Of a DNA stretch of 64,000 bases, positions 9,942-57,212 are shown piece after piece. The position numbers were made by a program, and so were the translations under genes. This DNA is from Candidatus Woykebacteria bacterium (lineage in GTDB: Bacteria > Patescibacteriota > Microgenomatia > Woykebacterales > RBG-16-39-9b): contig JBBDPN010000001.1 in NCBI GenBank assembly GCA_040876265.1, forward strand, positions 118,208 to 182,207. Reading direction: 5' to 3'. Within the stretch, counting starts at the first letter, position 1. The number at the start of each line of letters is the position of its first letter. The notes under the pieces were generated by a model. It was not told the DNA's origin. It saw nothing but the letters and a program-made list of their open reading frames with translations, and ran no database searches.

Positions 9942-9969
9942 TTGATTTGGCGCACACTATTGTTATAAA
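9942..9969 (+). promoter_or_regulatory. sigma70-like promoter (TTGATT-16 nt-TATAAA) ahead of the locus-1 operon
   Basis: Hexamers and spacer read directly. The ATG at 9981 follows with almost no leader. Confidence 0.4.
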
Positions 9970-9980
9970 ATCAAGTTAAT

Positions 9981-10670
9981 ATGGACAATCTGCCGTCTGC
10001 CCCGGAGGGTACTGAGCCACAAATAGAAGAAGATCACACTTCCGCCGAAACTCCTGTGGAAAGAGAACCGTCCAAGCCTTCTCCAGATGATTACGAGAAA
10101 GAGATGCTTAAAAATATAAATAGCGCCTTTGAGCAGGATGGTGCTGGTACGGAAGCGCATCGAGAAGAGGCTCGGCAGGAAGGGGTAGAAAAGGCAAAGG
10201 AATTACTGAGACCAGAAGAAGCATTAGATCCGACGCAGCCTGTTCCGGGGCGACCAATTCAATCCCAAGCTGATAGGTCTGAGGGTGAGGTAAACGAAGT
10301 AAGAGCAGGGGAGGCGGCAGTACCAGAAATATCGGTAAGAGAGGTGCAGCCATTACCTCCTCGACCAATAGAGAAGCAACCGCCTGTGTTAGCTGAAGAA
10401 GTAATGGAAAGACCACCGTCGCCATCTGTAGATGAGATGCCTGTCGGTCCACCTAGCCCCACCGAACCTCAGCAAGTGGAAATTTCGCAGGACGTACCTT
10501 CACAGATCCAGGAGAGACCACTGCCAGTTGTTGAACCCGCTCCTTCAAGATCAGACCCTTCTCCAGGGAGAGTACCAGCTGCAAAAAGACCAGATTTGGG
10601 TTTGGGTGATTCAGCGCCAACCATGTATAAGGAAAGACAAGAATTAAGGGCCGCGGCTGGCCAAAAGTAA
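9981..10670 (+). CDS. hypothetical Pro/Glu-rich low-complexity protein
   Basis: No TM helix and no catalytic motifs. Highly acidic and proline-rich. Lies directly upstream of the ATPase. Confidence 0.4.
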   Translation: MDNLPSAPEGTEPQIEEDHTSAETPVEREPSKPSPDDYEKEMLKNINSAFEQDGAGTEAHREEARQEGVEKAKELLRPEEALDPTQPVPGRPIQSQADRSEGEVNEVRAGEAAVPEISVREVQPLPPRPIEKQPPVLAEEVMERPPSPSVDEMPVGPPSPTEPQQVEISQDVPSQIQERPLPVVEPAPSRSDPSPGRVPAAKRPDLGLGDSAPTMYKERQELRAAAGQK

Positions 10671-10673
10671 TAT

Positions 10674-34632: not shown

Positions 34633-37401
34633 ATGTTTATAGCGATCATAGCCGCTATTTTGATCATATCATTTTTGCTGGCCTGGAGAGCGGCCAGAAA
34701 ACTGGAGGGAGGCAAATCCTCGGAAATTTCTAATGGGGTTCTTCTTTCCATTTCACTTCCACGCGAAAATGAAAAGCTTCCAACCGCCGCCGAGCAAATG
34801 TTTGCTTCTCTTCACGGTATTTTAGACTTTACTCCTGGAATACAAGAGCATTTATCACTTGAAATGGCCAGCTCTTTGGATGGAATAAAGTTTTATGTTT
34901 TTGCCCCGACGGCTTTTAAAAATTTCGTCGAGAGTCAAATCTACGCTCAATACCCGGACGCTGAGATACGAGAGGCGGTAGACTACGCTAAAAGTATTCC
35001 GGCAGGCAGCTTTGTTTCATCCACAGAGATAGTTCTCGATAAAGAATTTATATTTCCAATTAAAACATTTCGTGACTTCGAAGTAGATCCGCTTGCGGCT
35101 ATCACCAGCGCTTTGGTTAGTGTCCAGCCTGGGGAACAACTTTGGGTCCAGTTGCTGGTGCGGCCAGTTGATGATTTTTGGCAAGACAGAGGTCACGAAT
35201 ACGTCCAAATGGTTCGGGAGGGAGTTTCGCCAGTTACACTTAGCCCCCAAGACATTATTATTGATGTTGGCAAAAGTTTTATGTCAATTGGTGGCAATGT
35301 CGCTACCCACATTATGAAGGGGCCGCAGCCTTACGAGGAACCAAGGGGTGGGGTACAGCAGTACGTGCGACTTTCGGCTGGGCAAGAGCTGACTTTAAAG
35401 ATGCTTGAAAACAAGTTGTCTAAGATAGGCTTTGAGACGAAAATTCGTCTGGTTGCCGTTTCAAACTCGAAAGAGGGTGCCGAGTCCAGACTATCTGGTC
35501 TGATCAGCTCGTTTAAACAATACGCCACCGCCAACCTAAATAGTTTCGTCGCCGACCCCGAAAGTCCGGAACCAGACACCCTGGTTAAGCAGTATCAAGA
35601 CAGGAGTTTTCCGGAGAGAGAAGCTGGAAATTACATTTTGACAACCGAGGAGCTAGCTTCCATCTACCACCTTCCAAATGTATCGGTAGAGACACCAACT
35701 ATTAGCTGGACGGGTGCCAAAAAAGGCGAACCCCCGCTAAATATACCTACGACTTCAGCGACGATGCTCGGCGAGACTTACTACCGAGACTACAGAACAA
35801 AATTTGGAATTAAAAGAAGTGATCGAAGAAAGCACATGTATATTATTGGTAAGACAGGTACGGGAAAAAGTACGCTAATAAAAAACATGATAATACAGGA
35901 TATGAGGTCTGGTGAGGGAGTCGCCGTGCTTGATCCTCACGGGCAGCTTATCGACGAGTTGCTCGAATTTGTGCCCGAGAACCGGATAGAGGACGTGGTA
36001 ATCTTAAACCCAGCTGATGCTGAATACCCAATTTCCCTAAACATGTTGGAAATGGTAGATCCAAAGCAGCGCACGTTGATGGGCGATACGATGTTGGATG
36101 TTTTTAAAAAATATTTTGCTGATAGCTGGGGTCCCAGGCTTGAATATATTTTAAAAAATTGTATTCTAACGCTATTAGAAGTTCCAAACACGTCGCTCCT
36201 TTCTGTTACTAGACTTTTGACAGATCGAGATTACAGAAAGCACATAGTAGGGCTAATTAAAGATCCGCAAATGAAACTTTTTTGGAATAATGAATTTGCT
36301 CGTATGGAACAAAACGAGAGGTTGATCACCGAAGCTATTAGTCCAATTCAAAACAAAGTCGGTCAATTTTTAAATTCTGAATTGATTAGAAATATTGTCG
36401 GTCAACCAAAAAGTAGTATCAAAATGGATGATATTATTAATTCCGGAAAGCTTTTCTTTATAAATTTGGCGACGGGAAGAATCGGCGGTAATAATACGGC
36501 GTTGCTTGGCGCCATGATTGTTTCCCAACTGCAGTTTGCGGCGATGAGACGCGTGGATGTTCCCGAAGAACAAAGACGGGATTTCTTTCTTTACGCTGAC
36601 GAATTCCAAAACTTTGCTACCGATTCCTTTGCGACAGTTTTATCTGAAGCAAGAAAATATCGCCTTGATCTTACCTTGACCCACCAGTATATTGAGCAAA
36701 TGCCCGAGACAGTAAAGGAAGCTGTGTTTGGTAATATAGGGACTCTCATTTGTTTTACAGTTGGACCGACCGACGCTCGTTTTTTGGAGCGGGAGTTTAC
36801 CCCAGTCTTTCTGGAAAATGATCTAATTACTTTGGGTAGGTACGAGATGTATCTAAAATTGCAAATAGATGATACTCAAAGCCAGCCTTTTTCCGCAGTT
36901 AGCCTAGCTCCGGCGACCGATGCGACTAATACTAAAGAAAGAGCTATTTCTGCTTCTAGGACAAAGTACGGTCGTGGTGTGGAGAACGTAGAAAAAATTA
37001 TCAAAAAATGGATCGAAACAAGATTTAAGGCTGGCCAACCGCCACAACCGCCAGCTTGGGCAACAGCAGAGGAGACGAGAATCAAAGAATCTCCGGTCGA
37101 GGGTGACAAAAAGGAAGAGGAGGCCATGGTTATCGGTACGCAGAAAAGTGAGGGTGTTTATACACCACCAAAACCCTTTACTAGGGAGAGTATTCCGGGG
37201 TTATCGGCCGAAAGTAGCCCGGAGACTACAGGTTTAAGACCGCAAGAGGCGGATAATGGAGAAGTTGATATATACAGATTTCCGGAAATAAACACCCAAC
37301 CAGAAGCTGCACAGCAAGACGCAAAAGTACCTGGAGGGAGTTCGGGCCATGAAAGAACCGACGATTATCATGGGAAGCAAAACTTTCCCAAGGATACATA
37401 A
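34633..37401 (+). CDS. membrane-anchored FtsK/HerA/VirB4/TrwB-superfamily P-loop ATPase, paralog of 10674..13217
   Basis: Same architecture and motifs as locus 1: RRKHMYIIGKTGTGKST, DFFLYADEFQNFATD, EARKYRLDLTLTHQ, AVFGNIGTLICFTVG. Collinear similarity along the N-terminal domain as well. Confidence 0.7.
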   Translation: MFIAIIAAILIISFLLAWRAARKLEGGKSSEISNGVLLSISLPRENEKLPTAAEQMFASLHGILDFTPGIQEHLSLEMASSLDGIKFYVFAPTAFKNFVESQIYAQYPDAEIREAVDYAKSIPAGSFVSSTEIVLDKEFIFPIKTFRDFEVDPLAAITSALVSVQPGEQLWVQLLVRPVDDFWQDRGHEYVQMVREGVSPVTLSPQDIIIDVGKSFMSIGGNVATHIMKGPQPYEEPRGGVQQYVRLSAGQELTLKMLENKLSKIGFETKIRLVAVSNSKEGAESRLSGLISSFKQYATANLNSFVADPESPEPDTLVKQYQDRSFPEREAGNYILTTEELASIYHLPNVSVETPTISWTGAKKGEPPLNIPTTSATMLGETYYRDYRTKFGIKRSDRRKHMYIIGKTGTGKSTLIKNMIIQDMRSGEGVAVLDPHGQLIDELLEFVPENRIEDVVILNPADAEYPISLNMLEMVDPKQRTLMGDTMLDVFKKYFADSWGPRLEYILKNCILTLLEVPNTSLLSVTRLLTDRDYRKHIVGLIKDPQMKLFWNNEFARMEQNERLITEAISPIQNKVGQFLNSELIRNIVGQPKSSIKMDDIINSGKLFFINLATGRIGGNNTALLGAMIVSQLQFAAMRRVDVPEEQRRDFFLYADEFQNFATDSFATVLSEARKYRLDLTLTHQYIEQMPETVKEAVFGNIGTLICFTVGPTDARFLEREFTPVFLENDLITLGRYEMYLKLQIDDTQSQPFSAVSLAPATDATNTKERAISASRTKYGRGVENVEKIIKKWIETRFKAGQPPQPPAWATAEETRIKESPVEGDKKEEEAMVIGTQKSEGVYTPPKPFTRESIPGLSAESSPETTGLRPQEADNGEVDIYRFPEINTQPEAAQQDAKVPGGSSGHERTDDYHGKQNFPKDT

Positions 37402-42305: not shown

Positions 42306-43247
42306 ATGCTGCCGCACATCGAAGATTTTCTTTTATCCTTGCAGACTAACAACTATTCCCCCGAAACTGTCTATAATTATGATCGTGATTTAAAAGTTTT
42401 CGACCAATTTTTATCCGAAGCTGGCACTTCCTTTGATAAAGTTGATAAAACCACCATCGCCCGCTATAAGGCCTACCTCACGTCTCGCGACAGAAAAACG
42501 CCAATTAGCTTGAAAGAACAAGAAAAAATTCTAGTTTCACGTTCGGTAAATAGAATGCTGTCTAGTTTACGCAGCTTCTTAAAATTCCTTATTGAGATGG
42601 ATAAGCCGGTGCCCGTGCCGCCAGAAGCAGTGAAGCTAACCAAGACGGAGAGAAAGCACCCACAGGTGGCTGAGATGAACGAACTGATCAGCCTTATTGA
42701 GGCTCCAAATAAGTTTGAGAAAGATAAGCTAGTGACGCTGCGTAATCGGGCGATACTTGAAGTCCTTTTTGCCACCGGTATGCGCATTTCGGAACTTTGT
42801 TCATTAAATAGAAACCAGATTGACGATTCTGGAAAAATATTTATTATGGGTAAGGGTAAGAAGCAGAGGTTCGTCTATCTCACGCCCCGTGCTACCGAGC
42901 ATCTAAATAGGTACCTTTCTACCCGAAAGGACATTCTACCCGCTCTTTTTATCCCCTATGCCGGTCAAAATGTGAATAGCGCCAAAAAAAGAATCGCGAC
43001 AAATTATTTACAAGCTAAGATAAAGGAGTATCGGGAGAAATTGAAAATAAACGTTCCTACGAGTGCTCACAGTCTGCGGCATGGCTTTGCGACGTACCTG
43101 GCGGAGGAGGGAGCCTCACCAGCGGCAATTCAGATCCTTCTTGGTCACGAGTCGCTGGATACGACTACCCGTTATGTTCACGCCAGTGATCGCTTCGCCC
43201 AAGAAACTCACCGCAAATACCACCCCCTGGCTGAGGCTGATGATTAA
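42306..43247 (+). CDS. tyrosine site-specific recombinase, XerC/XerD-like
   Basis: Tyrosine recombinase catalytic residues in ATGMRISE, HSLRHGFATYL and LLGHESLDTTTRYVH. Confidence 0.8.
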   Translation: MLPHIEDFLLSLQTNNYSPETVYNYDRDLKVFDQFLSEAGTSFDKVDKTTIARYKAYLTSRDRKTPISLKEQEKILVSRSVNRMLSSLRSFLKFLIEMDKPVPVPPEAVKLTKTERKHPQVAEMNELISLIEAPNKFEKDKLVTLRNRAILEVLFATGMRISELCSLNRNQIDDSGKIFIMGKGKKQRFVYLTPRATEHLNRYLSTRKDILPALFIPYAGQNVNSAKKRIATNYLQAKIKEYREKLKINVPTSAHSLRHGFATYLAEEGASPAAIQILLGHESLDTTTRYVHASDRFAQETHRKYHPLAEADD

Positions 43248-43279: not shown

Positions 43280-44869
43280 TCAAATAGAAATAATGTACCC
43301 TTCATTCGGTTTTAATTTAAACCGTGATAGATCTACCACCTTACCTATTTCGTCACCCAATGAAGTATCGCAGATAATTTTAGGGTTTGGGTATTCTATA
43401 GAAATACTGCAGTTCTTATTAGAAAAATTTAATAATACTAATACCTTTTCCTTTCCGTCCCTTCGAATATAGGCGAAAACATCTTTACCCGGCATTGGTA
43501 ATGGAACGTAGGATCCCCTTCTAAGTGCCTCGTTCTTGTTGCGAAGACTGATGAGCTTCTTATAAAGTGAAAGCATTGAGTGCCGGTTTTTACTTTGGTT
43601 TCTTACATTTACTTTACGATAGTTTCCAGCAACTGGTAACCAAGGCTCGACTCTAGAAAAACCGGCATATTTACTACTGTCCCATTGCATAGGCGTCCTT
43701 ACAGGGTCACGCCCACCCTCTAAGCCTTCTTGCCCCGCAGAATTTCTATCGGTAATTTTTTCTTTTGGTATACGGACGTTTTTTAACCCTAACTCATCAC
43801 CATAATAAATAAAAGGAATCCCCCTCAACGTGAGTAAAAGCATAGCCGCCACTCGTGCAGCGCTTTGATCTAGTCTGCTAGATACTCTAGCGCGATCATG
43901 GTTGCTCAGAACATAGTTTGGGATGTGATGAGGTTTTAATGATCGTTCGTAAGTGTCGATAAATTTTTTAAAGCTTTTTGCATTCCAAGGAAGAAGTAAT
44001 AAATTAAGATTCAATGGCGCACAACGCGATGAATTATAATTTTTATAATAATCTATCATTCCTGGAATATCGGTGTAGTCTTCTGTTACCATAAATTTAT
44101 CTTCATAACTTTCTAGTAACTTACAAAACCTTATCAGTATTTTAAATCTTTCGGGCTGATTCATACTGTAAACATGATTCAGTTTCTTATACGGATCATC
44201 TACACCATCTTGGTAGTTATAATTAGGTAGGTCATCTCTAAACAAGGCATCTTTAACGAGCATATGGACCGCGTCAACTCTAAACCCGTCCACTCCTATA
44301 TCCATCCAAAACTTTAAGATTTTTGTCATCTCCTTCAGAATTGCTGGATTTCTCCAATTTAAGTCTGGTTGTTCTTTATAAAAAGAATGAAGATAGTATT
44401 GTCCCGTTCGCTTATCATATTCCCAAGCAGATCCACCGAATACACTTAACCAATTATTCGGAGGGGAGCCGTCTTCTTTAGGGTCCGCCCAAATATAATA
44501 ATCCCGTTTAGGATTATATTTTGAGGACTTAGATTCTAAAAACCATTTATGTTGTTCAGAGGTATGATTTGGAACAAAATCAAGAAGCACCTTTATATTT
44601 CTTTTATGCGCCTCCCCTATTAACTTGTTAAACTTGCTTAAGTTACCAAAAACAGGATCAATTTCTAAATAATCTGCTACATCATAACCCCCGTCAAGCA
44701 TAGGCGATTTAAAAATAGGCGAAAGCCAAATGGCGCCAACGTTTAGACAGTTTTCGGCATTATTACTTAAATAATCAAGTTTTTGGATAAGACCGGCTAA
44801 ATCTCCCACCCCATCGTTGTTAGAATCTTTAAAACTTTTTGGGTAAATTTGATATACTACCATAGTCAA
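43280..44869 (-). CDS. GH13 alpha-glucosidase (oligo-1,6-glucosidase / trehalose-6-phosphate hydrolase-like)
   Basis: GH13 regions I (VLLDFVPNHTS) and II (DGFRVDAVHML). N-terminus typical of oligo-1,6-glucosidases (YQIYPKSFKDSNNDGVGD). Confidence 0.85.
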   Translation of the reverse strand: MTMVVYQIYPKSFKDSNNDGVGDLAGLIQKLDYLSNNAENCLNVGAIWLSPIFKSPMLDGGYDVADYLEIDPVFGNLSKFNKLIGEAHKRNIKVLLDFVPNHTSEQHKWFLESKSSKYNPKRDYYIWADPKEDGSPPNNWLSVFGGSAWEYDKRTGQYYLHSFYKEQPDLNWRNPAILKEMTKILKFWMDIGVDGFRVDAVHMLVKDALFRDDLPNYNYQDGVDDPYKKLNHVYSMNQPERFKILIRFCKLLESYEDKFMVTEDYTDIPGMIDYYKNYNSSRCAPLNLNLLLLPWNAKSFKKFIDTYERSLKPHHIPNYVLSNHDRARVSSRLDQSAARVAAMLLLTLRGIPFIYYGDELGLKNVRIPKEKITDRNSAGQEGLEGGRDPVRTPMQWDSSKYAGFSRVEPWLPVAGNYRKVNVRNQSKNRHSMLSLYKKLISLRNKNEALRRGSYVPLPMPGKDVFAYIRRDGKEKVLVLLNFSNKNCSISIEYPNPKIICDTSLGDEIGKVVDLSRFKLKPNEGYIISI

Positions 44870-44988
44870 GAGATGAATTTAATAATTGTGTTAAGCAACT
44901 TATGTTCGAGAAGTCCATAAATGCAGATTGTACTTCAAAAACGCTTCCTTATAATATTGGGTTTACTTGCTAAAATTATTATAACAAA

Positions 44989-46137
44989 ATGAGAATTGCA
45001 GTGATTGGATCAGTTTCAAAACCAACTCGTTATGAGACTCCCGGTGGGGTAGAAGTTTGGACCTCCCTATTTTTGTTAGAGTCTATAAAAAGAGGACATG
45101 TATTTGATTTATACTCCCTTAGGGATTCGCTACAAATACCAAATAAAATTAATCTAATCACAGTGTCTAACAAGGGAGTTGACGAGATTAAAAACTCTAA
45201 ATCGTTTGGGGAAAAACACCAACGAGAATATGATAGCGCCTCCTTACTAGGTATATTCTTTTCAAGAATAACGCTACTTATCAAAGAAAACGAACAGAGC
45301 TATGATATTGTTATTAACAGTTCGGGAAGCCCGTTATTAACTGTAAACTGGGATTTTTATAAAAAACCACTTTTAACGATTGCACATTTTGCGGCCTTTG
45401 AACCATTTGTAAGTTATTTTGAATATTTTCCTTTACCCAACAATATTTTTTACGCGTTTCCAAGTCTTCGTGAGTCTGAACTAGCTAAGGAAATACCTGG
45501 AAAGCAAAAATTTCATATTCCACACGGGGTAGACGTTGAAAAAATTACATTTAGGGAAAATGGAGCTAGAAACATACTTTGGTTTGGGCGGCTAGATCCA
45601 ACAATGCCTAAGGGTCTTATTGAAGCAATTCATATTTCCAATAAAATGGAGATCCCTATAGATATATACACACACGTTGAAGATATTAGTTATTTTAAGA
45701 GAACCGTTAAGCCACTTTTAACAAAATATACTAATTTTCAAATTAATACACCGCGTAATGATTTTTTTAATAAGGCTAAACTTTTCCTTTTACCATTAGG
45801 TTGGGAAGAGCCTTTTGGCTTAACGATACTTGAATCTATGGTTAGTGGAACACCAGTAGTTGCTTATGCGAAAGGAGCTGTTCCAGAGATAGTGAGGGAC
45901 GGTGAAACTGGTTTTATCGTAAACTCTTCAGACGATGATTTAAGAGGTGACTGGATTATTAAAAAAACTGGAATCGAGGGTTTGTGTGAAGCAGTTAAAA
46001 AGATCTATAAGATGCCAGACTCTCAGTACGCAGCAATGAGAAAAGCTTGCAGAAAGAATGCAGAAACCAACTTTACCACCGGTAAAATGGTAGATTCATA
46101 TGAAACTGCTTACCGAAAGATATTATCAGGTCATTAG
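44989..46137 (+). CDS. glycosyltransferase family 4 (GT-B, group 1)
   Basis: EPFGLTILESMVSGTPVV...GETGFIV (E-x7-E region). Confidence 0.7.
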   Translation: MRIAVIGSVSKPTRYETPGGVEVWTSLFLLESIKRGHVFDLYSLRDSLQIPNKINLITVSNKGVDEIKNSKSFGEKHQREYDSASLLGIFFSRITLLIKENEQSYDIVINSSGSPLLTVNWDFYKKPLLTIAHFAAFEPFVSYFEYFPLPNNIFYAFPSLRESELAKEIPGKQKFHIPHGVDVEKITFRENGARNILWFGRLDPTMPKGLIEAIHISNKMEIPIDIYTHVEDISYFKRTVKPLLTKYTNFQINTPRNDFFNKAKLFLLPLGWEEPFGLTILESMVSGTPVVAYAKGAVPEIVRDGETGFIVNSSDDDLRGDWIIKKTGIEGLCEAVKKIYKMPDSQYAAMRKACRKNAETNFTTGKMVDSYETAYRKILSGH

Positions 46138-48614: not shown

Positions 48615-49097
48615 TTAAAGATGTAGCCTACCGTGTCTGGGTCGGTAGCGCCGCTGTCGCTGGTTTTCACTGTCTCGATCTACCTCCAAAGAAGCAGTAG
48701 CACCGAACTCATATACATAGCCACATGCGAGGCACGTGCTGAACGCACCATACAGGTCTTCTTCGAACAACATGGACCCATTGCAGCGTGGGCAACTCCT
48801 GGGTGGCTTGCCGTCGGCGACAAGGTCGTTTGGTGAACTAGGAGCTTCTGCGGCGGATTGTTTTACCTTCTCTTCCACCATTGGCCCTTCGACGGCAGTT
48901 GCGTGAAGTGGTAGTGGGAGTTCCAGGGTAAAGGTTTTCAGAGGCGGTTGGGTTTCTGCTGAAGGAATCGCTGGCGGTGGTGCTACCGCTGCCGACTCTT
49001 TCACTTCAGCTGGTTCTACTAGTTCCAAACCTCGATCCGTGGGCAGTTTTCGCTGTTTGGAAAAAAACCTGTGGATCCACTCTCCCAACTGGGACAT
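48615..49097 (-). CDS. hypothetical protein with a C-terminal zinc ribbon
   Basis: CPRCNGS...CLACGY. Confidence 0.4.
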   Translation of the reverse strand: MSQLGEWIHRFFSKQRKLPTDRGLELVEPAEVKESAAVAPPPAIPSAETQPPLKTFTLELPLPLHATAVEGPMVEEKVKQSAAEAPSSPNDLVADGKPPRSCPRCNGSMLFEEDLYGAFSTCLACGYVYEFGATASLEVDRDSENQRQRRYRPRHGRLHL

Positions 49098-49427: not shown

Positions 49428-50246
49428 TTAAACCTTCTCGAGTAGTCGTACACCGAAAACACGTTCGATTATTTTCAGAGCAACTCCTACTGCGATTAGA
49501 AGCAACGGCCAGTTTGGCAAGTTGCCACCAGTTACTGGTAGTCCTTCAGCGGCGGCTAAGACTTGTCCTGGTCTTGGAGCCGGACCTGGGAGTACGGCAG
49601 TTGGTTGATCGCCGGGATCCATAGGTTCACCGCCCCTGTCAGGTAGCGGACCGCCTATTACACTGTGATTTACATCGTTATCGATATTTATTTCGAAGTT
49701 GATGTCCCCAGTTTTGATTGATGCATCTCCAGTGTTCTTATTTGCTTCATTTTCACCCGTGTTAAGGTCTGCTCCTATATTGTTTTGCAAATCCACATTG
49801 TTATTCACATTAATATTCAGGTTATTCTTGATCCTAGTTTCGGCTTTGTTTACTGAGTCTGCACCAGTGTTCTCATTGCTGGATGTTAGGAATGGACCGC
49901 AACAAATAAGGTTGGTGTTGGTATTGAACACGTCAGCACCATTAGCCTTGTTTGTTATATTTACATGGCCGCTTATATCCCCTGTTTGAATAGACGCATC
50001 ACCAGTGTTTTTATTAGCTTCATTCTTTCCCGTGTTCGCTTTTACGCTTATGTTGTTAGTTATATTTGCGTTGTTGGTACTATTAATTGTTGTGTTGTTT
50101 TCTACAGAAACTTCAGCCTTGTTTACTGAGTCTGCACCGGTGTTGGTGTTACTAGCAGTACTAGCGAGAGCTGCAGTACCGATAAGAAGTACGCTGGCAC
50201 CTGCAGCGGCAGAAGATGTTATAACTTTTGTCCAGATGTCTTTCAT
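49428..50246 (-). CDS. secreted Asn/Thr-rich repeat protein with a C-terminal LPxTG-type sortase anchor
   Basis: Signal peptide. Two copies of the NTGADSxNKAE...NTGxNEANKNTGDASIxTGD module. C-terminal LPVTGG, then a hydrophobic helix, then a KIIERVFGVR tail. Confidence 0.6.
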   Translation of the reverse strand: MKDIWTKVITSSAAAGASVLLIGTAALASTASNTNTGADSVNKAEVSVENNTTINSTNNANITNNISVKANTGKNEANKNTGDASIQTGDISGHVNITNKANGADVFNTNTNLICCGPFLTSSNENTGADSVNKAETRIKNNLNINVNNNVDLQNNIGADLNTGENEANKNTGDASIKTGDINFEINIDNDVNHSVIGGPLPDRGGEPMDPGDQPTAVLPGPAPRPGQVLAAAEGLPVTGGNLPNWPLLLIAVGVALKIIERVFGVRLLEKV

Positions 50247-50252
50247 GGTTAC

Positions 50253-52511
50253 TTAACGTTTCACCCCCTTAAATAATGCCCTCCTTGTCAATGAAAATAC
50301 TATTCCAAGTGCCACCGGATACATCAAGTTCATGAGATTGAAATCATCAAACAGCCCTCTCTCAGAGTTGAAGCGGGCTATTGGCGGAGCTTGTCCATCG
50401 TTATCCGTACCTAGAACCAGTGTTTGTACATCTGCATCTCCAGGTGATTTAGCTGTGTTTGATCCACCGTTTGTTTCAAGGCTAGGTCCACTAGCTGCTC
50501 CAAATGCAAGTAGCGTCTGATTTGCTCCGTTTATAGTAGAGCTGGTCGGTCTGGAAGAACTTTTACTGCTACTTGCGGATTTGCTGAGAGGCTCGTTGAT
50601 ATTTACACCAGACAGGGTTTTTTCGCCGTTCACGATGTCGCCGTTAAACTGACCAAAAATATTCACAATTGTCAGTAAAAATCTGCTGCCAATGAAGGTA
50701 TTGTTTAGAAAGTTGGCGATGTTGGCAGCTATATTTACGTCACCGGTTTTTATCGAACCGCTTCCTGTATTGTATGAAGCACTATTATCACCAGTGTTCG
50801 CATTTAGGTTTACGTTGTTTACGAGCGTTCCAGTGTTGTTGACAGTGATATCAGTTTCGTTCTCGACATTATTTGCTGCTTCATTGAAACTATCTGCACC
50901 AGTGGTATCATTGGCCGCTACTATACTTCCGTCTGGGTTTACAGTGAAAGTGAAGAATGGTGAGTAGACGCTGCCCTGCTCCCCTCCGAAGAGCTGTCCT
51001 GTCCAACTACCCATGTTGTTTATAAGTACCATCCAGATATCGCCACCGCTGCCAACTGCCGAGGTGTTGGCTACAGTAGAGACGTTTAAGTTTGCATCCA
51101 CATCACCAGTGTCGATGTAACCACCACCGGTGTTTTTACTGGCGTCATTACCACCAGTGTTGCCGTTTAAATTTACATTGTTCTGTACGTCGGCAAGGTT
51201 GTTGAGGTCGATACTGGTATTGTTGCTTGTTGAATTGTTTGCTGTATTTTCTGAACCCGCGCCGGTAGTTGAATTACCAGCTAGTAAGTCTAAACCAGAA
51301 CCATTGGTACCTGTTCCACCTTCATTTATACCTTTTAGAACGATATCTCCGTCCAGGGTGCCAAAAATGTTCACCACTCCCAGCAGCAGTTCTCCGCCAC
51401 CGCCAAGAAACACATTATTGAGGAAGTTTATAAGGTTAAAAGCAATGTTGGCATCCCCGGTCGTAACGCTTCCGTTGCCAGTATTTTTATCAGCAGTATT
51501 GTTTCCTGTATTTGAGGTGAGGTCATAATTATTTATTAAGTTTCCGAAATTATCGACCAATATAGTGTTTGAGTTGTTCGAAGTGTTAGTTGCGCTGTTT
51601 AAAGAATCTTCTCCAGTAGCATTGTTTCCAGCAAAGGCACCACCGCCCGGAATATAAGTGGGGGTTATTTTGCTGTAATCAATGACGATATCGCCGGTCT
51701 GATCATCCATTACGTTGAAGACAGAGGCGCCAACGTTTACGTTGTTAGCTGTATTTACGGCCGTTAATATTACGTCAGAGTCACCGGTGGTAACTATCCC
51801 GTTCCCTGTGTTTTTATCAGCGCTATTGTTACCTGTGTTGCTATCAAAATCAACATAGTTGTAAAGATCGGCGTCATTATCTATACTCGTGCCCGTTTCA
51901 TTGTTTGTATTATTGTCGGCCATATTAAATGATCCAGAGCCTGTCTTATCATTTGCCGCTTCTAGATCCTTTATACTTACAGTTCCACAACTGCCACCGC
52001 TTCCACATGAGCCCACCGAACCAATGCTAATAGTGTTAGCGGTTGTTTCGACGTTGCCTGCTAAGCTAGCGTTTCCAGTATTGACTAGACCGTTCCCAGT
52101 ATTTTTATTAGCACTGTTGTCGCCGGTATTACTATCTCCCTCAACCAGATTATCTATTTTAGCTGTATTATTTATATCGGTGTTACTCGTATTATTAGTG
52201 TTCGTACCAGCTTCGTTGTAAGAATCTGCGCCGGTATTGCTGTTTATTGCTGCCGCGGCAGCTGCAGCCTCAGCGGCGGCCTTTTTAGCCTCCTGACCAG
52301 CCTTCCATTGCTGGTACCAATTATTTGGATCTTTCCAATTTACTTCTTGAGTTGTGCTAGTTGTCTGGGTTGACGGAGTGGCTTCTTGGGCCATCACTAC
52401 GCTAGCCGGAAGCACAAAAGTATAAGAAAATGCAACAAGGACACTTATAAATATGCGTAATATTTTATTTCTTAAGTTAGTTCTCATCTTCTCGTTATTC
52501 TTTAAGGGCAT
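50253..52511 (-). CDS. large secreted Asn/Thr/Gly-rich repeat protein, paralogous to its neighbours
   Basis: Signal peptide. Many degenerate copies of the same module (SNTGDNSANKNTGNGxVTTGDA). C-terminal hydrophobic segment plus basic tail, with no LPxTG. Confidence 0.6.
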   Translation of the reverse strand: MPLKNNEKMRTNLRNKILRIFISVLVAFSYTFVLPASVVMAQEATPSTQTTSTTQEVNWKDPNNWYQQWKAGQEAKKAAAEAAAAAAAINSNTGADSYNEAGTNTNNTSNTDINNTAKIDNLVEGDSNTGDNSANKNTGNGLVNTGNASLAGNVETTANTISIGSVGSCGSGGSCGTVSIKDLEAANDKTGSGSFNMADNNTNNETGTSIDNDADLYNYVDFDSNTGNNSADKNTGNGIVTTGDSDVILTAVNTANNVNVGASVFNVMDDQTGDIVIDYSKITPTYIPGGGAFAGNNATGEDSLNSATNTSNNSNTILVDNFGNLINNYDLTSNTGNNTADKNTGNGSVTTGDANIAFNLINFLNNVFLGGGGELLLGVVNIFGTLDGDIVLKGINEGGTGTNGSGLDLLAGNSTTGAGSENTANNSTSNNTSIDLNNLADVQNNVNLNGNTGGNDASKNTGGGYIDTGDVDANLNVSTVANTSAVGSGGDIWMVLINNMGSWTGQLFGGEQGSVYSPFFTFTVNPDGSIVAANDTTGADSFNEAANNVENETDITVNNTGTLVNNVNLNANTGDNSASYNTGSGSIKTGDVNIAANIANFLNNTFIGSRFLLTIVNIFGQFNGDIVNGEKTLSGVNINEPLSKSASSSKSSSRPTSSTINGANQTLLAFGAASGPSLETNGGSNTAKSPGDADVQTLVLGTDNDGQAPPIARFNSERGLFDDFNLMNLMYPVALGIVFSLTRRALFKGVKR

Positions 52512-52606
52512 TTAGAAATTCACATATTTTGAACTTTTAAATACCCTTCTGGGTTCCCCCGCCCTCTGTAAAGAGGGCGGGGTCCACCAGAAAAAGCAAT
52601 TACGCT

Positions 52607-53737
52607 TTAAACCTCCTCACCGTTGAGGATGTTTTCGTTGACTTCGGTAGTTACTTCTACCTCAACGTCAGTGTCACCAGTGTCGATATCGTCACCGGTG
52701 TTTTTGTTGGTTTCGTTCTTACCAGTGTTAGCTTTGACTTCGCCGTTGTTGTCAACGTCTGAGTTGTTGTTTTGGTTGACGTCTAGGTCGTTTTTGACCT
52801 CTGCTTCTGCTTTGTTGTAGGAATCGTTTCCAGTTTTTTCGTTGGAGCTTTCCAATTCAACATCGCAGCAAACGTCTACATCAGCTTCGTTGGAGTTAGC
52901 TTTGTTTTCGATAACTACTTCAACGTCGGCATCACCAGTATCGACTTCACCTTCACCGGTGTTTTTGTTAGCTTCGTTGTAGCCGGTGTTTGCCCAAACA
53001 TCAACGTTGTTGTCAATATCAGCGTTGTTGTTTTGGTTGATATCGGTGTAGTTCTTAATCTCAACCTCAGCTTCGTTGTAGGAGTCTGCTCCAGTGGTAT
53101 CGTTGGAAGCGCTTACGCTACCTCCACTGCCACCACCAACGCTGGCTTTATTCTCGTTTACCATATTAGTAATGCTGACGACTACGTCGGCATCACCAGT
53201 ATCAACACTACCGCCACCGGTATTTTTGTTGGCTTCGTTGCCACCGGTGTTGGCTTTTACGCTAACGTTATTGTCTACGTCAGCGTTGTTGTTTTGGTTA
53301 AGGTCCAATTTGTTCTTAACCTCAACTTCAGCCTTGTTTTTGGAGTCAGCACCTGTTTTGTTGTTAGAAGCTGACAAGTCACCTTCACAACCACAATTTT
53401 CCACACTGACAACATTGGAGTTGGCTTGGTTACTGATTGAAACAGTAGCGTTTGCATCTCCTGTCTTTACGGAACCTTCACCAGTATTTTTGTTGGCTTC
53501 GTTTTTACCAGTGTTGGATTTTACGCTGATGTTGTTAGTGATGGATGCGTTGTTGTTTTGGTTGACGTTTACGTAGGTTTCTGATTCCACTTCAGCTTTG
53601 TTGTAGGAATCAGCCCCAGTAGTGTCGTTGCTTGCAGTTGCTGCCATGGCCGGAGCAATTGCAAAGGCCAAAGATGCAGCACCGCTCAGAGCTGCGTGGA
53701 TTAGTTTTGTCTTTGTCATGTTTTCACCCCCTTTCAT
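52607..53737 (-). CDS. secreted repeat protein with four tandem modules of about 88 aa
   Basis: Signal peptide. Four near-identical units (TGADSYNKAEVE..NQNNNADxDNNVSVKANTGxNEANKNTGxGSVDTGDADV), each ending in a Cys pair (CGCEGD; CCDVELE). Confidence 0.6.
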   Translation of the reverse strand: MKGGENMTKTKLIHAALSGAASLAFAIAPAMAATASNDTTGADSYNKAEVESETYVNVNQNNNASITNNISVKSNTGKNEANKNTGEGSVKTGDANATVSISNQANSNVVSVENCGCEGDLSASNNKTGADSKNKAEVEVKNKLDLNQNNNADVDNNVSVKANTGGNEANKNTGGGSVDTGDADVVVSITNMVNENKASVGGGSGGSVSASNDTTGADSYNEAEVEIKNYTDINQNNNADIDNNVDVWANTGYNEANKNTGEGEVDTGDADVEVVIENKANSNEADVDVCCDVELESSNEKTGNDSYNKAEAEVKNDLDVNQNNNSDVDNNGEVKANTGKNETNKNTGDDIDTGDTDVEVEVTTEVNENILNGEEV

Positions 53738-54174
53738 TTGTTAATGTTTCTTTGCTTGTAATTAGTTTTCCCTCGCGCCAAACGTGCCTTAATCAAATAC
53801 TGGCAGATAAGCAGAAATAAGTACTTCCTAAGTCGGTCTTGACTTGGCAGAAGATGAGCAGACAGACCAATTATTATTAGTCTGATAGGAAAAACTCTTA
53901 AGTTACATCTCCTATTCTAAATACAAAGAACCTGCCCTGTCAATACTCTTCTTATTTTAGATAGATACGTCCATCAATGTCAACTACCAATCGAGCAATT
54001 GTATTGATATATTAATGCTTTTTGTCAAGGCGACTCTATAATCAAATATAAATAATGAGAAAACCCTATTCGTATAAGGTGTTCTAAGTATATGACGATA
54101 GTAATGAAAAGTTTGTTACAACTAAAAAGAAAAGTGGCTGCTAGTTATTTGCTGAGGGTTATCGAGAAAATGGA

Positions 54175-54762
54175 TTAGAAAGTAATCACCAAAGTTTCCT
54201 TTGGGTCGCTGACATCGCCAACTTCTAGCTTAAATTTCTTCTCGCTGGGAAAAACAACAAACCCAACGTTGCTTTTTTTTGTTGATTCTGGCCTAATCTG
54301 GACGGACCCTTGATGAACTGAAGGCGCAAATTTACTACCGTCCTCTCTTACAAGCCTGAAAAGGTCTACTGGAAACGCATAAAGCGCTACCGGGTAGGGA
54401 TTTTCTACCTCCATATTGATAACTAAAAATACTTTACCCTCTATTGGGTTAGCTCTTTTTCCCTGAACAAGTATATAGTCGCCAAATTCGGCGTTTGTAA
54501 TGCGGAGCTTAAAATTACCATCGGTCCTTAGTCTTTCTTCGGTTCTGGCAACTACCTCATAGGATTTATTTATCTCGATAACTTTGCTGCCATTTATCCC
54601 ACTAGGTTTTATGAAGACAAATAGTAAAACAATCAGAGCTAATACCGCACCCGAACCTAAAAGGATTTTTTTTATGTTCTTATTTAGCAGCTGTCTATAA
54701 GCAATAAATTTGTTCAACATAAAGCGCCGCCTATTATGCTTTATAGTCTTATAGTTTGTCAA
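54175..54762 (-). CDS. hypothetical secreted protein (N-terminal TM anchor), last gene of the Clp-like operon
   Basis: Overlaps the upstream ATPase gene by 4 nt. No motifs. Confidence 0.45.
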   Translation of the reverse strand: MTNYKTIKHNRRRFMLNKFIAYRQLLNKNIKKILLGSGAVLALIVLLFVFIKPSGINGSKVIEINKSYEVVARTEERLRTDGNFKLRITNAEFGDYILVQGKRANPIEGKVFLVINMEVENPYPVALYAFPVDLFRLVREDGSKFAPSVHQGSVQIRPESTKKSNVGFVVFPSEKKFKLEVGDVSDPKETLVITF

Positions 54763-57212
54763 GTGGAAAATAAAAGTTGGTTATTTTGTAGGGAAATGTT
54801 AACCGCCGAGCCGCGCCTTAGTTCTCCGGATAGTATTTTTTGGGCTATGTGACCCTCAATATTGTCTGCCAAAAATCGCTTTAACGGCCTTGCCCCGTAC
54901 GTTGGGTCGAAACCAGATTTGGCGATCCAAGCAGTAGCTTGCGGCTCGATTGTAAGAACCACATCCTGTTTTTTGAGGCGTCCAGCGAGCTCCTTTATCA
55001 AAAGGCCAACTACTTCTACTATTTCGCTTTCGGTTAGGGGTTTGTAAACAATAATATCGTCAAATCGGTTTAGAAATTCGGGCTTAAAAACCCCCTCGCG
55101 TTGCAGCTTCTCTAAAAGCAATTTTTTTAAATCTTCTATCGGGACATTTTGCTGGACGGATTCCCGGATGTACTCGGCTCCAGCGTTTGAAGTGGCGATG
55201 ATTATGGTATTGGAAAAAACTATTTTTCGACCAGTTACATCCTCCAAGACGCCGTCATCCAAAACCGGTAAAAAGGCTTCCTGTATTTTTGGCTCTGCTT
55301 TCTCCATCTCATCAAGCAGCACTAGTGAGTATGGGTTGCGTCTTATTTTTTCAGTAAAATCGCCGCCCTCTTCATATTGGCCAGTGCCTGGAGGTGCGCC
55401 GATTAGTCGATTTATTGCCTGCTCTGATTGGTACTCACTCATATCAATCCGGATTATTTTTTCCTCATCGCCAAAGTAAAGAGATGCTAACGCTTTGGCA
55501 GTTTCGGTTTTTCCAACACCAGTGGGTCCCAAAAATAAGAAGCTGCCGATTGGTTCACTCCCACTCCTTTCGATACTTCGCGCCCGTCTTAGAGCATTGG
55601 ATATAGCTTTGACCGCTTCTTCTTGGTCAACTATTCTTTGGTGGACCACCTTTTCTAGGTGGATCAGCTTTTCCGCTTCCTCTCCACCGGCGAGTTTAAC
55701 CGGCATTTTGGTTTTTTGACTAATCACGTCCTCGAGGTCGGAAACTTCTAACAAGTGTTTTTTCTGCAAGGAGATGGCAGCAGCTGCTTCGTCAAGTAAA
55801 TCTATTGCTTTTCCAGGTAAAACTCGATCCACAAAATATCTTTCCGAAAGTTCAACGACTCGTTGGATTGCTTTGTAAGTGATAATTACCTTGTTTCTTT
55901 TTTCTATTGCTGGTACCGCCTGCTCCAAAATGCGGATTGCAACATCTCCAGTCGGTTCTTCCAGATTAACGGTCTCAAACACAGATGCGAACGTGCCTTG
56001 GGGTTCAATAAAGCGGCGGTAAGCTTCTCTTGTACTGGTAGCAATTACTTGGAGACGACCAGAACCCAGAGAGTTGATTAAGTGACCGGTTATGTTTACA
56101 CCTGTACCAGAGCCGCCGGCGATGTTTTCAATACCTGGCATATACAAAATTACATTGCCAGCGTGGGTTAGTTCGTTTAAAAGATTTTGCAATCTTTGCT
56201 CTAGTTCCCCCGGTGCAGCTCCAGCCAAAAGAGAAGTGACGTCGATTTCGATAAACCGTTTGTATTCCAGAGCCGGTGGTAGTAACCCACTCATGGATCG
56301 CACGGCCAGGCCGCGTACTATCGTGTTTTTACCGATCCCGGGGGGTCCCAAAAGTAGCACATTCTTCTTGACACTGCGGGCTAAAACTTCCTGTACTTGA
56401 GCTATTTCAGCATCTTTACCAACCAGTGTTTCATGTTCTCGGCTCTTGCGAATATCCTTTGATAAATCTACCGAGTAGCTTTCGGTCTCTGGTGTCCAAC
56501 CACCAAGCCAAGATTCACTTATCCCCGGACCTAAACTATCAACCGGCTTCTCCCAGAAGTGACTTTTGTCAGCGTCAAAGTAGTCTCGCGCCCAGAAAAC
56601 GATGTTGAGTAGATCGTTATCCTTCACCTCTTTGTTAAAAAGTAAATTTTTTAGTTCGGGCGTTTGCGATATCAAAGCCAGCAAAATATCCAGCTTGTCT
56701 AGGTAATTTCTGGATTCTTTTTCGGCCCAGGCTCGAGCGTAAGAAAGGGTTTCGTCAAAGTTTATTTTCCGCCCAGTCAGCTGTGGGTCTTGAAACAGCT
56801 TGTTGAGCTCTTCCATTGAAATATCTGCCTTCTCAATCACAAAAAGGACTTTTTTGTTTCTCAGTAAAGGGAGAAGAAGTCGGTGCAAATCCTGTCTGTT
56901 GCCGGCATTGGAAAGTAATTTTGCCGCCTCCAGCGAGATACTGTTAGCCAAATTTTGACCAGACGTAAAAGGTGTGGGCCTTTCCTTCAAAATTTTCTCG
57001 CGATAAAAGATCTCAAAAACAAAAAATATGATTGACACAGCTAGTACCAGATAAAAGATTTTATTACCCCCGGTGCTGCTGGTGAGTATCAGCATCAGTA
57101 GAAGGGCTGCGGCGAGAAGAACGCGGACGGCTACTACCAAAATAGTAGAGTACAGACTAGAAAAAGCAGCCGCGCCAAATATTCTGGATGTGTTAGGCGA
57201 AAATTGCTCCAT
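54759..57212 (-). CDS. membrane-anchored Clp/Hsp100-family AAA+ ATPase (ClpB/ClpC-like) with a degenerate first nucleotide-binding domain
   Basis: Two N-terminal TM helices, then Clp_N-like repeats. D1 carries GPPGIGKNT (Lys kept, Thr changed to Asn) and the Walker B position reads VILYMPGIEN, with no DE pair. D2 is canonical: GPTGVGKTETAKALA, LLDEMEKA, ATSN. Confidence 0.75.
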   Translation of the reverse strand: MEQFSPNTSRIFGAAAFSSLYSTILVVAVRVLLAAALLLMLILTSSTGGNKIFYLVLAVSIIFFVFEIFYREKILKERPTPFTSGQNLANSISLEAAKLLSNAGNRQDLHRLLLPLLRNKKVLFVIEKADISMEELNKLFQDPQLTGRKINFDETLSYARAWAEKESRNYLDKLDILLALISQTPELKNLLFNKEVKDNDLLNIVFWARDYFDADKSHFWEKPVDSLGPGISESWLGGWTPETESYSVDLSKDIRKSREHETLVGKDAEIAQVQEVLARSVKKNVLLLGPPGIGKNTIVRGLAVRSMSGLLPPALEYKRFIEIDVTSLLAGAAPGELEQRLQNLLNELTHAGNVILYMPGIENIAGGSGTGVNITGHLINSLGSGRLQVIATSTREAYRRFIEPQGTFASVFETVNLEEPTGDVAIRILEQAVPAIEKRNKVIITYKAIQRVVELSERYFVDRVLPGKAIDLLDEAAAAISLQKKHLLEVSDLEDVISQKTKMPVKLAGGEEAEKLIHLEKVVHQRIVDQEEAVKAISNALRRARSIERSGSEPIGSFLFLGPTGVGKTETAKALASLYFGDEEKIIRIDMSEYQSEQAINRLIGAPPGTGQYEEGGDFTEKIRRNPYSLVLLDEMEKAEPKIQEAFLPVLDDGVLEDVTGRKIVFSNTIIIATSNAGAEYIRESVQQNVPIEDLKKLLLEKLQREGVFKPEFLNRFDDIIVYKPLTESEIVEVVGLLIKELAGRLKKQDVVLTIEPQATAWIAKSGFDPTYGARPLKRFLADNIEGHIAQKILSGELRRGSAVNISLQNNQLLFST

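Follow-up and report, generated by a model that had tools for sequence, protein, structure and literature searches.

LPxTG repeat proteins of Gram-positive bacteria are often adhesins. In the csc clusters of Lactobacillales, CscA (DUF916, with a transmembrane anchor), CscB and CscC (WxL) and CscD (LPXTG) are thought to form one surface complex, and in Streptomyces the chaplins, which comprise long LAXTG-anchored and short secreted proteins with varied copies of one domain, form a surface layer. Among ultra-small groundwater bacteria, surface layers were reportedly seen by microscopy by Luef et al. in 2015. Here we analyze a 64,000-nt stretch of a Candidatus Woykebacteria genome (assembly GCA_040876265.1, contig JBBDPN010000001.1, positions 118,208 to 182,207), hereafter the window, in which three consecutive genes encode paralogous proteins built from a single repeat of ~85-88 aa: one with a cell-wall sorting signal, one with a predicted membrane helix, and one with no anchor of its own. 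Full-text searching of the literature on surface proteins, surface layers (S-layers) and sortase in the candidate phyla radiation (CPR) and Microgenomates found no description of the repeat or of the gene module that carries it. What is new is the undescribed domain family and its CPR module; as a kind, sortase-linked surface repeat proteins are already familiar.

Three paralogous repeat proteins and their anchors

Coordinates are 1-based positions of the window, and all module genes lie on the minus strand. The list of open reading frames (ORFs) places three consecutive minus-strand genes at 49428-50246 (272 aa), 50253-52511 (752 aa) and 52607-53737 (376 aa), precisely as in an initial annotation made from the sequence; the 376-aa and 752-aa genes are separated by 95 bp and the 752-aa and 272-aa genes by 6 bp. 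That annotation had described a shared module of about 88 aa in three paralogues, and motif scan, alignment and hidden Markov model (HMM) search agree on it, with the core NTGxN[ES]A[ND]KNTGxG..TGD and the consensus ASNxxTGADSxNxAE....N...IN.NNNAD..NNV....NTGxNEANKNTGxGSVxTGD.....NI.N.AN. An alignment of all 11 units has 18 invariant columns, and the units show the defining pattern N-x-TG-x-x-S-x-N-x-A ... N-N ... NTGxNxAxxNTGxG...TGD ... N-x-x-N together with paired linker cysteines. The 376-aa protein has four copies, the 752-aa protein five and the 272-aa protein two, and the HMM found the repeat in no further ORF of the window. The earlier counts of two and four thus stand, but the 752-aa protein, credited with more than eight, has five by both motif scan and HMM. 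Units are 31-65% identical to one another in protein and 60-80% in DNA, the DNA period in the 376-aa gene is 261-264 nt, and no near-identical DNA repeats occur in the gene cluster.

Sequences resembling signal peptides were found at the N-terminus of all three proteins, as had been claimed, by direct reading of the n-, h- and AxA regions; the AxA-type sites are ALA/S, VMA/Q and AMA/A, where the slash marks the site. The description of the three as paralogous secreted repeat proteins is borne out by the shared module together with these signals, and their export, anchoring and surface location are well supported by sequence. The mature proteins are acidic (isoelectric point, pI, 4.05-4.4; ~4.05 for the 376-aa protein) and contain 18-20% Asn and few aromatic residues. 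NxS/T sequons occur at the level expected from composition and are not enriched. We refer to the 376-, 752- and 272-aa proteins as C-, B- and A-type, respectively; their features are as follows.

52607..53737, minus strand: C-type protein, 376 aa (probably 370), with signal peptide 1-32, four units and no C-terminal anchor
53375..53635, minus strand: C-type unit 1, residues 35-121 (HMM envelope), with a CxC pair, C115/C117 (53387-53395), at its C-terminal border
53120..53371, minus strand: C-type unit 2, residues 123-206 (HMM), followed by a Gly-rich linker, GGGSGG, without Cys
52856..53110, minus strand: C-type unit 3, residues 210-294 (HMM), with a CC pair, C290/C291 (52865-52870), at its border
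52613..52849, minus strand: C-type unit 4, residues 297-375 (HMM)
50253..52511, minus strand: B-type protein, 752 aa, with signal peptide 1-41, Ala-rich helix 63-85, five units, a predicted disordered region and a predicted transmembrane helix
50682..52250, minus strand: B-type five-unit span, with units at 51996-52250, 51720-51959, 51390-51632, 51036-51281 and 50682-50918 (residues 88-172, 185-264, 294-374, 411-492 and 532-610; motif scan and HMM)
51342-51383, 50991-51032 and 50634-50675, minus strand: B-specific hairpin inserts, the last just outside the five-unit span
50262..50336, minus strand: predicted C-terminal membrane anchor of the B-type protein, residues 726-750 (AlphaFold2 helix), LMNLMYPVALGIVFSL then TRRALFKGV
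49428..50246, minus strand: A-type protein, 272 aa, with signal peptide 1-28, two units, a Pro-rich spacer and a sorting signal
49899-50156 and 49641-49883, minus strand: A-type units, with a CC pair between them (49899-49904)
49542-49640, minus strand: Pro-rich spacer of the A-type protein
49431..49541, minus strand: cell-wall sorting signal of the A-type protein, with LPVTG at residues 236-240, hydrophobic GNLPNWPLLLIAVGVAL and charged tail KIIERVFGVRLLEKV

The three C-termini differ. In the 272-aa protein, the sortase signal named in the initial annotation is present: LPVTG is followed by 17 mostly hydrophobic residues and then by KIIERVFGVRLLEKV. Its N-terminus, MKDIWTKVITSSAAAGASVLLIGTAALA/STAS, is the Sec signal peptide expected of a sortase substrate, so that the protein satisfies the sequence definition of one. 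Its positional orthologues (L004, L005 and L032; 45-48% identical) share the tail LAAxxGLPxTGGxLP. The 752-aa protein has no LPXTG and ends in a hydrophobic segment followed by TRRALFKGVKR; the distinct hydrophobic-plus-basic tail noted earlier is supported by an AlphaFold2 helix over residues 726-750 with basic residues after it, and it is kept in B-type orthologues. Upstream of this helix lies a Ser/Thr-rich region of 86 residues (634-719; 50355-50612) that is predicted to be disordered (predicted local distance difference test, pLDDT, <50). The period of the 752-aa protein is lengthened to 97-121 aa by insertions after units, and three of these share a family-specific hairpin motif, (L/M)xV(V/I)N(I/N)(F/M)GxxxG, e.g. 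LGVVNIFGTLDGDI. The 376-aa protein ends in ...NENILNGEEV and has neither LPXTG nor another anchor.

Most C-type homologues (e.g. P0004, P0009, P0025, P0034 and the gene at 9950-11239 of locus L002) carry a short C-terminal tail that is either Trp/Phe-rich and hydrophobic (...NGWFLFFMGKISN, ...WWMMWMGMMSH) or amphipathic (...FDLGDLLDALGL), with no basic residues after it. This tail, possibly a C-terminal signal for sorting or docking that has so far escaped recognition, is absent from the 376-aa protein of the window and its nearest relatives.

The cysteine pairs reported at the unit borders were confirmed in the inter-unit linkers, as ENCGCEGD and DVCCDVE in the 376-aa protein, LICC in the 272-aa protein and SCGSGGSC (C169/C175, at 51987-52007) in the 752-aa protein, and the pairing extends across the family. 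Cysteines are paired in linkers family-wide, and their total is even in ~90% of proteins. Among 136 four-repeat homologues, 115 have the Cys pairs of both linker 1 and linker 3, 20 have neither and 1 is mixed; the Gly-rich linker 2 never contained Cys. This pattern fits disulfides that would join the two halves of a molecule or neighbouring molecules. CPR genomes commonly encode MdbA-like and VKOR oxidoreductases (Meheust et al. 2019, PMC6744442).

Predicted fold and the search for relatives

The repeat is predicted to form long antiparallel beta-hairpins, as indicated by the agreement of AlphaFold2 and co-variation. Using 102 homologues, AlphaFold2 gave an all-beta top model of the 376-aa protein (pLDDT 86.6; predicted template modelling score, pTM, 0.80; other four models pLDDT 62.9-80.5), in which the strands of each unit are ~8, 31, 3, 4 and 19 residues long by DSSP. 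The model of the 752-aa protein has a pLDDT of 68.6 overall, with repeat cores above 90 and strands of 31-34 residues. Mean-field direct coupling analysis (DCA) of 888 non-identical units (effective number of sequences, Neff, 762; trimmed columns) shows an anti-diagonal ladder, with i+j ~101-103, from (24,79) to (47,54), which points to one long antiparallel hairpin per unit with its apex at KNTG, and also shows a local N-terminal turn. The initial annotation had suggested a beta-solenoid; strands of 31-34 residues and an antiparallel ladder, in place of parallel rungs at constant separation, contradict it. Strand length and co-variation also speak against a beta-helix, and no significant match to a beta-helix structure was obtained.

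The long strands are strictly amphipathic, with one face reading N-A-V-V-N-L-L-Q-N-A-V-N-V-V-A and the other K/E/D/N. The apolar face therefore has to be covered, by the protein's own fold or by a partner. The Foldseek root-mean-square deviation of 35-45 Å over ~300 columns suggests an object ~100-120 Å long, not a 400-Å rod.

Neither full proteins nor single units matched a characterised family: Pfam and NCBIfam returned only sub-threshold noise (DUF7017, E 0.007-0.03; PsaS, 0.023), and a 102-sequence profile matched no sequence in the PDB. Foldseek comparison of the 376-aa and 752-aa models with PDB and BFVD found nothing significant; the best match was the FapC amyloid (E 0.044, TM-score <0.13), and weak, non-significant matches included CsgA, a Ca2+-dependent antifreeze beta-helix and an RTX block. 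The fold is probably new and may represent a distinct beta-sheet architecture. PADLOC defence models had no match for the module, and the published link between DUF4352 and Mpr phage resistance (PMC12596739), relevant to a DUF4352-like gene of the module described below, is a lead only.

These results bear on two alternative functions. In the first, the proteins would form an extended fibre, pilus- or functional-amyloid-like, with the 272-aa protein as base or nucleator and the 376-aa protein as a shaft polymerising end-to-end (compare CsgB and CsgA of curli, and chaplins). Anchored and free paralogues do share the repeat, FapC and CsgA are the weak top Foldseek matches, and the sortases encoded next to the module in 16 related loci score best with the models of classes C and D, without reaching the cutoffs of either. 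In addition, DCA couplings join the TGADS turn to the hairpin apex, which lie at opposite strand ends of one unit, and could represent head-to-tail contacts between molecules; they may equally reflect subfamily co-variation. Against a fibre, the hairpins are antiparallel and do not form a parallel cross-beta solenoid, no Cna-type or pilin domains were found with Pfam, hhalign against Escherichia coli CsgA gave a probability of 0.1, and a sortase cannot polymerise the three proteins like true pilins when only one of them has a sorting signal. We regard a fibre of this kind as rather improbable. Two specific forms were rejected: a curli/Fap amyloid subunit (hhalign 0.1, Foldseek E of at least 0.04 and TM-score <0.13, antiparallel co-variation) and a sortase-assembled pilus (sorting signal only on the 272-aa protein, no CnaA/CnaB-type domains, and no class C sortase cutoff reached).

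In the second, the NTGxN and TGD turns would create an RTX- or ice-adhesin-like surface that binds ions, minerals, ice or polysaccharide. The Gly/Asp/Asn-rich turns, the strong acidity, the Asn content and the distant, non-significant Foldseek matches to the antifreeze beta-helix and the RTX block are in line with such a surface. It finds no HemolysinCabind or other Pfam match, the fold matches are non-significant, sequons are not enriched, and it leaves the three anchoring modes and the conserved module unexplained, making it very improbable.

Gene order and distribution among relatives

A unit profile retrieved 3,069 50%-identity cluster representatives at E <=1e-3 and 1,888 at <=1e-10, with 3-10 units in each repeat-carrying representative. 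The proposal that the family is lineage-specific is therefore not supported. Named homologues, all annotated 'hypothetical protein', come from Gottesman-, Davies-, Chisholm-, Woyke-, Woese-, Levyi-, Curtiss- and Roizmanbacteria or from the 'Patescibacteria group', and database homologues of the 376-aa protein reach E = 1e-103. A scan of viral contigs found no relatives of the repeat family, which argues that it is not phage-borne.

To follow gene order we used 60 loci from GTDB species-representative genomes and two metagenome loci (labelled L001 etc.), annotated with custom HMMs. The four-repeat gene was present in 42 loci, and in 37 of these a DUF4352-like gene lies directly 5' of it. Downstream genes were counted in the 37 loci having at least 4.5 kb of 3' sequence. 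A 676-1021-aa paralogue with a hydrophobic-plus-basic C-terminal tail comes next in 35, and a third repeat gene is found in 30, at least 20 of which have an LPxTG-type signal (LPVTG in 10 A-type orthologues; the rest LPMTG, LPATG, LPLTG and others). A sortase gene lies directly 3' of the A-type gene in 16 of the 37. Two variants can be distinguished: 16 loci have a 3-repeat anchored protein and an adjacent sortase, and 12 have a 2-repeat anchored protein without an adjacent sortase, the variant to which the window, L004, L005 and L032 belong. These four loci have a common order of TreT, membrane Clp-like ATPase, DUF4352-like, C-, B- and A-type genes. The order DUF4352-like, 4-repeat, ~730-aa anchored and LPxTG protein recurs in dozens of Microgenomates/Woykebacteria species, and the module is probably a core part of their cell envelope, judging from this conservation.

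The same comparison dates the paralogues. Whole-protein best matches are the positional orthologues (51-53% identity for the 376-aa protein, 39-48% for the 752-aa and 45-48% for the 272-aa), and since 30-35 of 37 loci hold a positional orthologue of each of the three genes with the order preserved, the triplication is old. Copy number across species is constant for each class, at 4 (C), 4-5 (B) and 2-3 (A). Units of the 752-aa protein are nearest to those of its positional orthologue (55-66%). Those of the 376-aa and 272-aa proteins are 56-65% identical to each other and 51-56% to their positional orthologues, suggesting some homogenisation or recent unit turnover or duplication in this genome. 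Of the earlier view that the family evolves rapidly by tandem duplication, local homogenisation among the 376- and 272-aa units is plausible; the rest is at odds with the old triplication and fixed copy number.

This constancy also bears on whether the proteins act as independent host-attachment adhesins, with the three anchors presenting the same binding repeat at different distances and no coat being formed. The adhesin or S-layer-like coat proposed in the initial annotation may be right. The frequency of adhesins among LPxTG repeat proteins counts for the former, and a single repeat is fused to the extracellular CHRD domain in two loci, as expected of a portable binding module. An episymbiotic life is assumed for CPR bacteria, and protein families enriched in their lineages have been linked to cell-cell interaction (PMC6744442, PMC7143001). 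Adhesin repeats, on the other hand, usually vary in number and sequence between strains, while here copy number is fixed by class and 30-35 of 37 loci keep the gene order, as would better suit a structural module. Pfam revealed neither a lectin-like domain nor another known binding domain, and the unanchored 376-aa protein would attach nothing unless it also bound the cell. We consider independent adhesins unlikely.

The CHRD fusions (L053, 8019-8873; L055, 9478-10206; Pfam E 1e-23 to 1e-24) occur in metagenome-assembled genomes (MAGs), one of Saccharimonadales and the other labelled Limnocylindrales (Chloroflexota), so the repeat is also a portable module outside Microgenomates. Two small extra paralogues were seen in other loci, neither of which is carried by the window: a single-repeat protein of ~115-120 aa encoded 5' of the DUF4352-like gene (L002, L009, L010, L017, L019), and an unanchored two-repeat protein of ~200 aa with a linker Cys pair, encoded on the opposite strand 3' of the sortase gene (L013, L014, L018, L020, L029, L034, L037, L045, L054). 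Many MAG records that bear the module (L005-L009, L012, L014, L017-L023, L044 and others) go under the title 'uncultured Gammaproteobacteria bacterium' or 'Candidatus Nanoarchaeia archaeon'. Judging from gene content and from genomes of ~0.9 Mb, these titles seem to be placeholders or errors.

Collapsed or chimeric repeats can yield spurious ORFs, and a Logan contig from the same sample (SRR27977662_40932, L064) ends at the boundary of the 376-aa and 752-aa genes, a sign that the region is hard to assemble. An assembly or annotation artefact is nevertheless effectively refuted: the DNA copies are only 60-80% identical, dozens of independent MAGs share orthologous clusters of this architecture, and the exact 752-aa and 272-aa sequences are recorded from two sources, NCBI (MEX0621547.1 and MEX0621546.1, respectively, both 'hypothetical protein' and on a 532-kb contig) and Logan. 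The break shows that such repeat genes fragment short-read assemblies, and MAG collections probably contain too few members of the family, or truncated ones.

Upstream of the 376-aa gene lie a fourth co-oriented gene and putative transcription signals.

54175..54762, minus strand: gene of the DUF4352-like membrane protein, with an N-terminal signal-anchor; first gene of the conserved module
53914..53983, minus strand: two sigma-70-like promoter matches (consensus scan and sequence reading), 5' of the 376-aa gene

The DUF4352-like ORF encodes 195 aa from a TTG, and the NCBI annotation gives 181 aa from 54720 (MEX0621549.1). Its Pfam DUF4352 (PF11611) match is sub-threshold (E 4.9e-4; 20.8 bits, where 25.9 are required), for which it deserves the name DUF4352-like only; the L002 orthologue was likewise scored as 'DUF4352 (weak)', and the protein is 50-60% identical to its counterparts in L002, L003 and L032. 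The promoter-like sites, TTGACA-18-TAAAAT at 53983-53954 and TTGACA-18-TAGAAT at 53943-53914, match 11 of 12 consensus positions each and are the only strong ones that the scan found in the gene cluster; as consensus matches only, their promoter function is putative. They would give the 376-aa gene a leader of ~175-235 nt. This untranslated leader (53738-53983, minus strand) is long and a regulatory role is possible; an Rfam scan of the window, leader included, found a single tRNA and no other family. The true start of the 376-aa gene is probably its second ATG, at 53719 (370 aa), which is preceded by a GGGGGTG Shine-Dalgarno sequence and is where an independent Logan assembly calls the gene. 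Exact look-up of the 370-aa form returned no database record.

Other genes near the module belong to housekeeping and sugar metabolism (EF-P, RuvC, YebC, Lgt, alpha-amylase, TreT, GT1 enzymes). Directly 5' of the DUF4352-like gene, with a 4-bp overlap or a 38-bp gap depending on the start codon chosen, 54759-57212 (minus strand) encodes an 817-aa ClpB/ClpC-like double AAA+ ATPase whose N-terminus is unusually hydrophobic, apparently with two membrane segments (residues ~20-70). The order of these two genes is kept in the Woykebacteria-like loci L003, L004, L005 and L032 (48-49% identity), and a membrane-tethered Clp-type unfoldase beside a surface-protein module is unusual. Just 3' of the module, 48615-49097 (minus strand) encodes a 160-aa protein that is rich in Pro and Ala in its N-terminal half and has a zinc-ribbon at its C-terminus (weak TFIIB-type match, CxxC...CxxC); L044 has a counterpart in the same position, along with a glycosyltransferase gene (74% identical) and a GDE-like gene (63%). 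Farther away, G+C falls to 0.349 at 44001-46000, against ~0.43 elsewhere, across a GT1 glycosyltransferase gene (44989-46137) and close to a tyrosine recombinase gene (42306-43247), and this stretch may have been horizontally acquired. A 922-aa protein (34633-37401, plus strand) resembles a TrwB/VirD4-like coupling protein or HerA (DUF87), and Logan annotates an 847-aa gene (10674-13217, plus strand) as DUF8128/DUF87; L001, too, has a DUF8128/DUF87 gene close to its repeat-protein module.

A candidate surface coat and its known counterparts

We tentatively favor a reading, at a little short of an even chance, in which this is an ancient envelope module whose three paralogues sit at three depths of a single-membrane envelope and form a coat or fibrillar layer. 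The DUF4352-like protein would be held in the membrane by its N-terminus, and the 752-aa protein, with its five repeats, would stand on the membrane via its C-terminal helix, preceded by the Ser/Thr-rich disordered region. A sortase encoded elsewhere would cleave LPVT/G of the 272-aa protein and join it to peptidoglycan. The acidic, four-repeat 376-aa protein would be exported without an anchor of its own and retained by like-with-like association with its membrane- and wall-anchored paralogues, sheet-on-sheet or edge-to-edge and possibly disulfide-stapled. The result would be a proteinaceous coat or fibrillar layer extending from membrane to surface. Counting for the coat are the conserved gene order and its link to sortase genes, the paired linker cysteines, and the apolar face of the strands, which if exposed needs a partner. 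A more elaborate version would make the module a proteinaceous surface layer or sheath of Microgenomates/Woykebacteria cells, with a beta fold without solved relative, in which the 376-aa protein is the lattice or fibre subunit, the other paralogues are two tethers, and disulfides and head-to-tail contacts lock the array; this we see as conceivable, though on the unlikely side.

Several observations weigh against the coat. First, the search of the genome for sortase genes that the initial annotation had suggested, made here over the 64-kb window with 10 kb of left and ~8.5 kb of right flank, found none by motif, phmmer or a 23-sequence HMM at maximum sensitivity, and wall anchoring here thus depends on a gene outside this region. 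According to Meheust et al. (2019, PMC6744442), almost all Microgenomates have sortase, and the cluster sortases of relatives, with catalytic motif ILQTC, exceed the cutoff of the general model TIGR01076 and of none of the subclass models, scoring closest to the class C and D models (class C, 59-71 bits against a cutoff of 160). Second, the charged tail after LPVTG, at 15 aa and of mixed charge, is longer than in textbook sorting signals, and no NCBIfam LPXTG-anchor model scored (best Microco_LAVTG, E 0.25). Third, the C-terminal tail present in most C-type homologues is absent here, and retention may differ between lineages. Fourth, the co-occurrence of Cys pairs may stem from one or two losses, given phylogenetic non-independence. 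Fifth, the fold is read from predicted strand assignments, and the five models of the 376-aa protein span pLDDT 62.9-86.6. Lastly, we infer the interaction of the paralogues, the formation of a lattice or fibre and the abundance of the proteins, as well as sortase processing in this organism and the purpose of a layer.

If the surface-layer reading is true, the module would open the envelope of a major CPR lineage to molecular study for the first time. Two things are defined here: a domain family so far without annotation, which has ~3,000 cluster representatives and matches nothing in Pfam, NCBIfam or PDB, and a conserved four- to five-gene, sortase-linked module. The module is a candidate, open to testing, for a central envelope structure in cells of the Microgenomates type. 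It would offer targets for antibodies, cryo-tomogram interpretation and metaproteome mining, and perhaps a new beta-sheet architecture. Were the proteins ordinary adhesins, less would be gained, namely an additional domain entry and improved annotation for thousands of 'hypothetical proteins'.

Among known systems, Gram-positive sortase-anchored LPXTG proteins, such as the cell-wall-anchored (CWA) proteins of staphylococci and streptococci, have the same signal peptide, repeats, Pro-rich wall-spanning spacer and LPVTG-hydrophobic-charged tail as the 272-aa protein, whose A-type orthologues also adjoin sortase genes. Unlike them, it has a repeat unrelated to known CWA domains and a longer, conserved tail (K/R-x-x-E-x-L-R-x-R-F-L type), its host is a CPR bacterium, and it is one of three paralogues. 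The SasG/Aap G5-E rods are likewise LPXTG-linked tandem repeats (~80-130 aa) with long beta-strands and few core hydrophobics, but the repeat has no G5 Pfam match, the rods were absent from the Foldseek matches, and strands here are amphipathic and 31-34 residues long. Curli (CsgA/CsgB) and Fap resemble the module in their Asn/Gln/Gly-rich imperfect repeats, a possible nucleator-plus-subunit logic and the weak top Foldseek matches; they differ in that hhalign found no sequence relation (CsgA), in their parallel rungs in place of antiparallel hairpins, and in that the module belongs to a single-membrane cell without outer-membrane secretion. Like S-layer proteins, the paralogues are acidic, secreted, Asn/Thr/Ala/Val-rich, aromatic-poor and conserved across species of a lineage. 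Their acidity, the amphipathic sheets and the strong promoter-like sites are indirect hints of an abundant protein that might assemble into a lattice. The module has no SLH, CWB2 or other anchoring domain, its covalently and membrane-anchored paralogues would be unusual for an S-layer, and no known S-layer wall-binding module or homology was detected with Pfam, NCBIfam or the 102-sequence profile against PDB. The csc clusters share a conserved operon with membrane-anchored, unanchored secreted and small LPXTG proteins; the module is without WxL or DUF916 (Pfam), and its components are mutual paralogues, whereas those of csc belong to different families. By analogy, the closest organisation is that of the Streptomyces chaplins, in which one domain in varied copies is likewise distributed over anchored and free proteins of a surface layer. 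The module has no chaplin domain (Pfam), its repeat is hydrophilic, acidic and ~85 aa long compared to a hydrophobic ~40 aa in chaplins, and it adds a membrane-anchored paralogue and a DUF4352-like partner.

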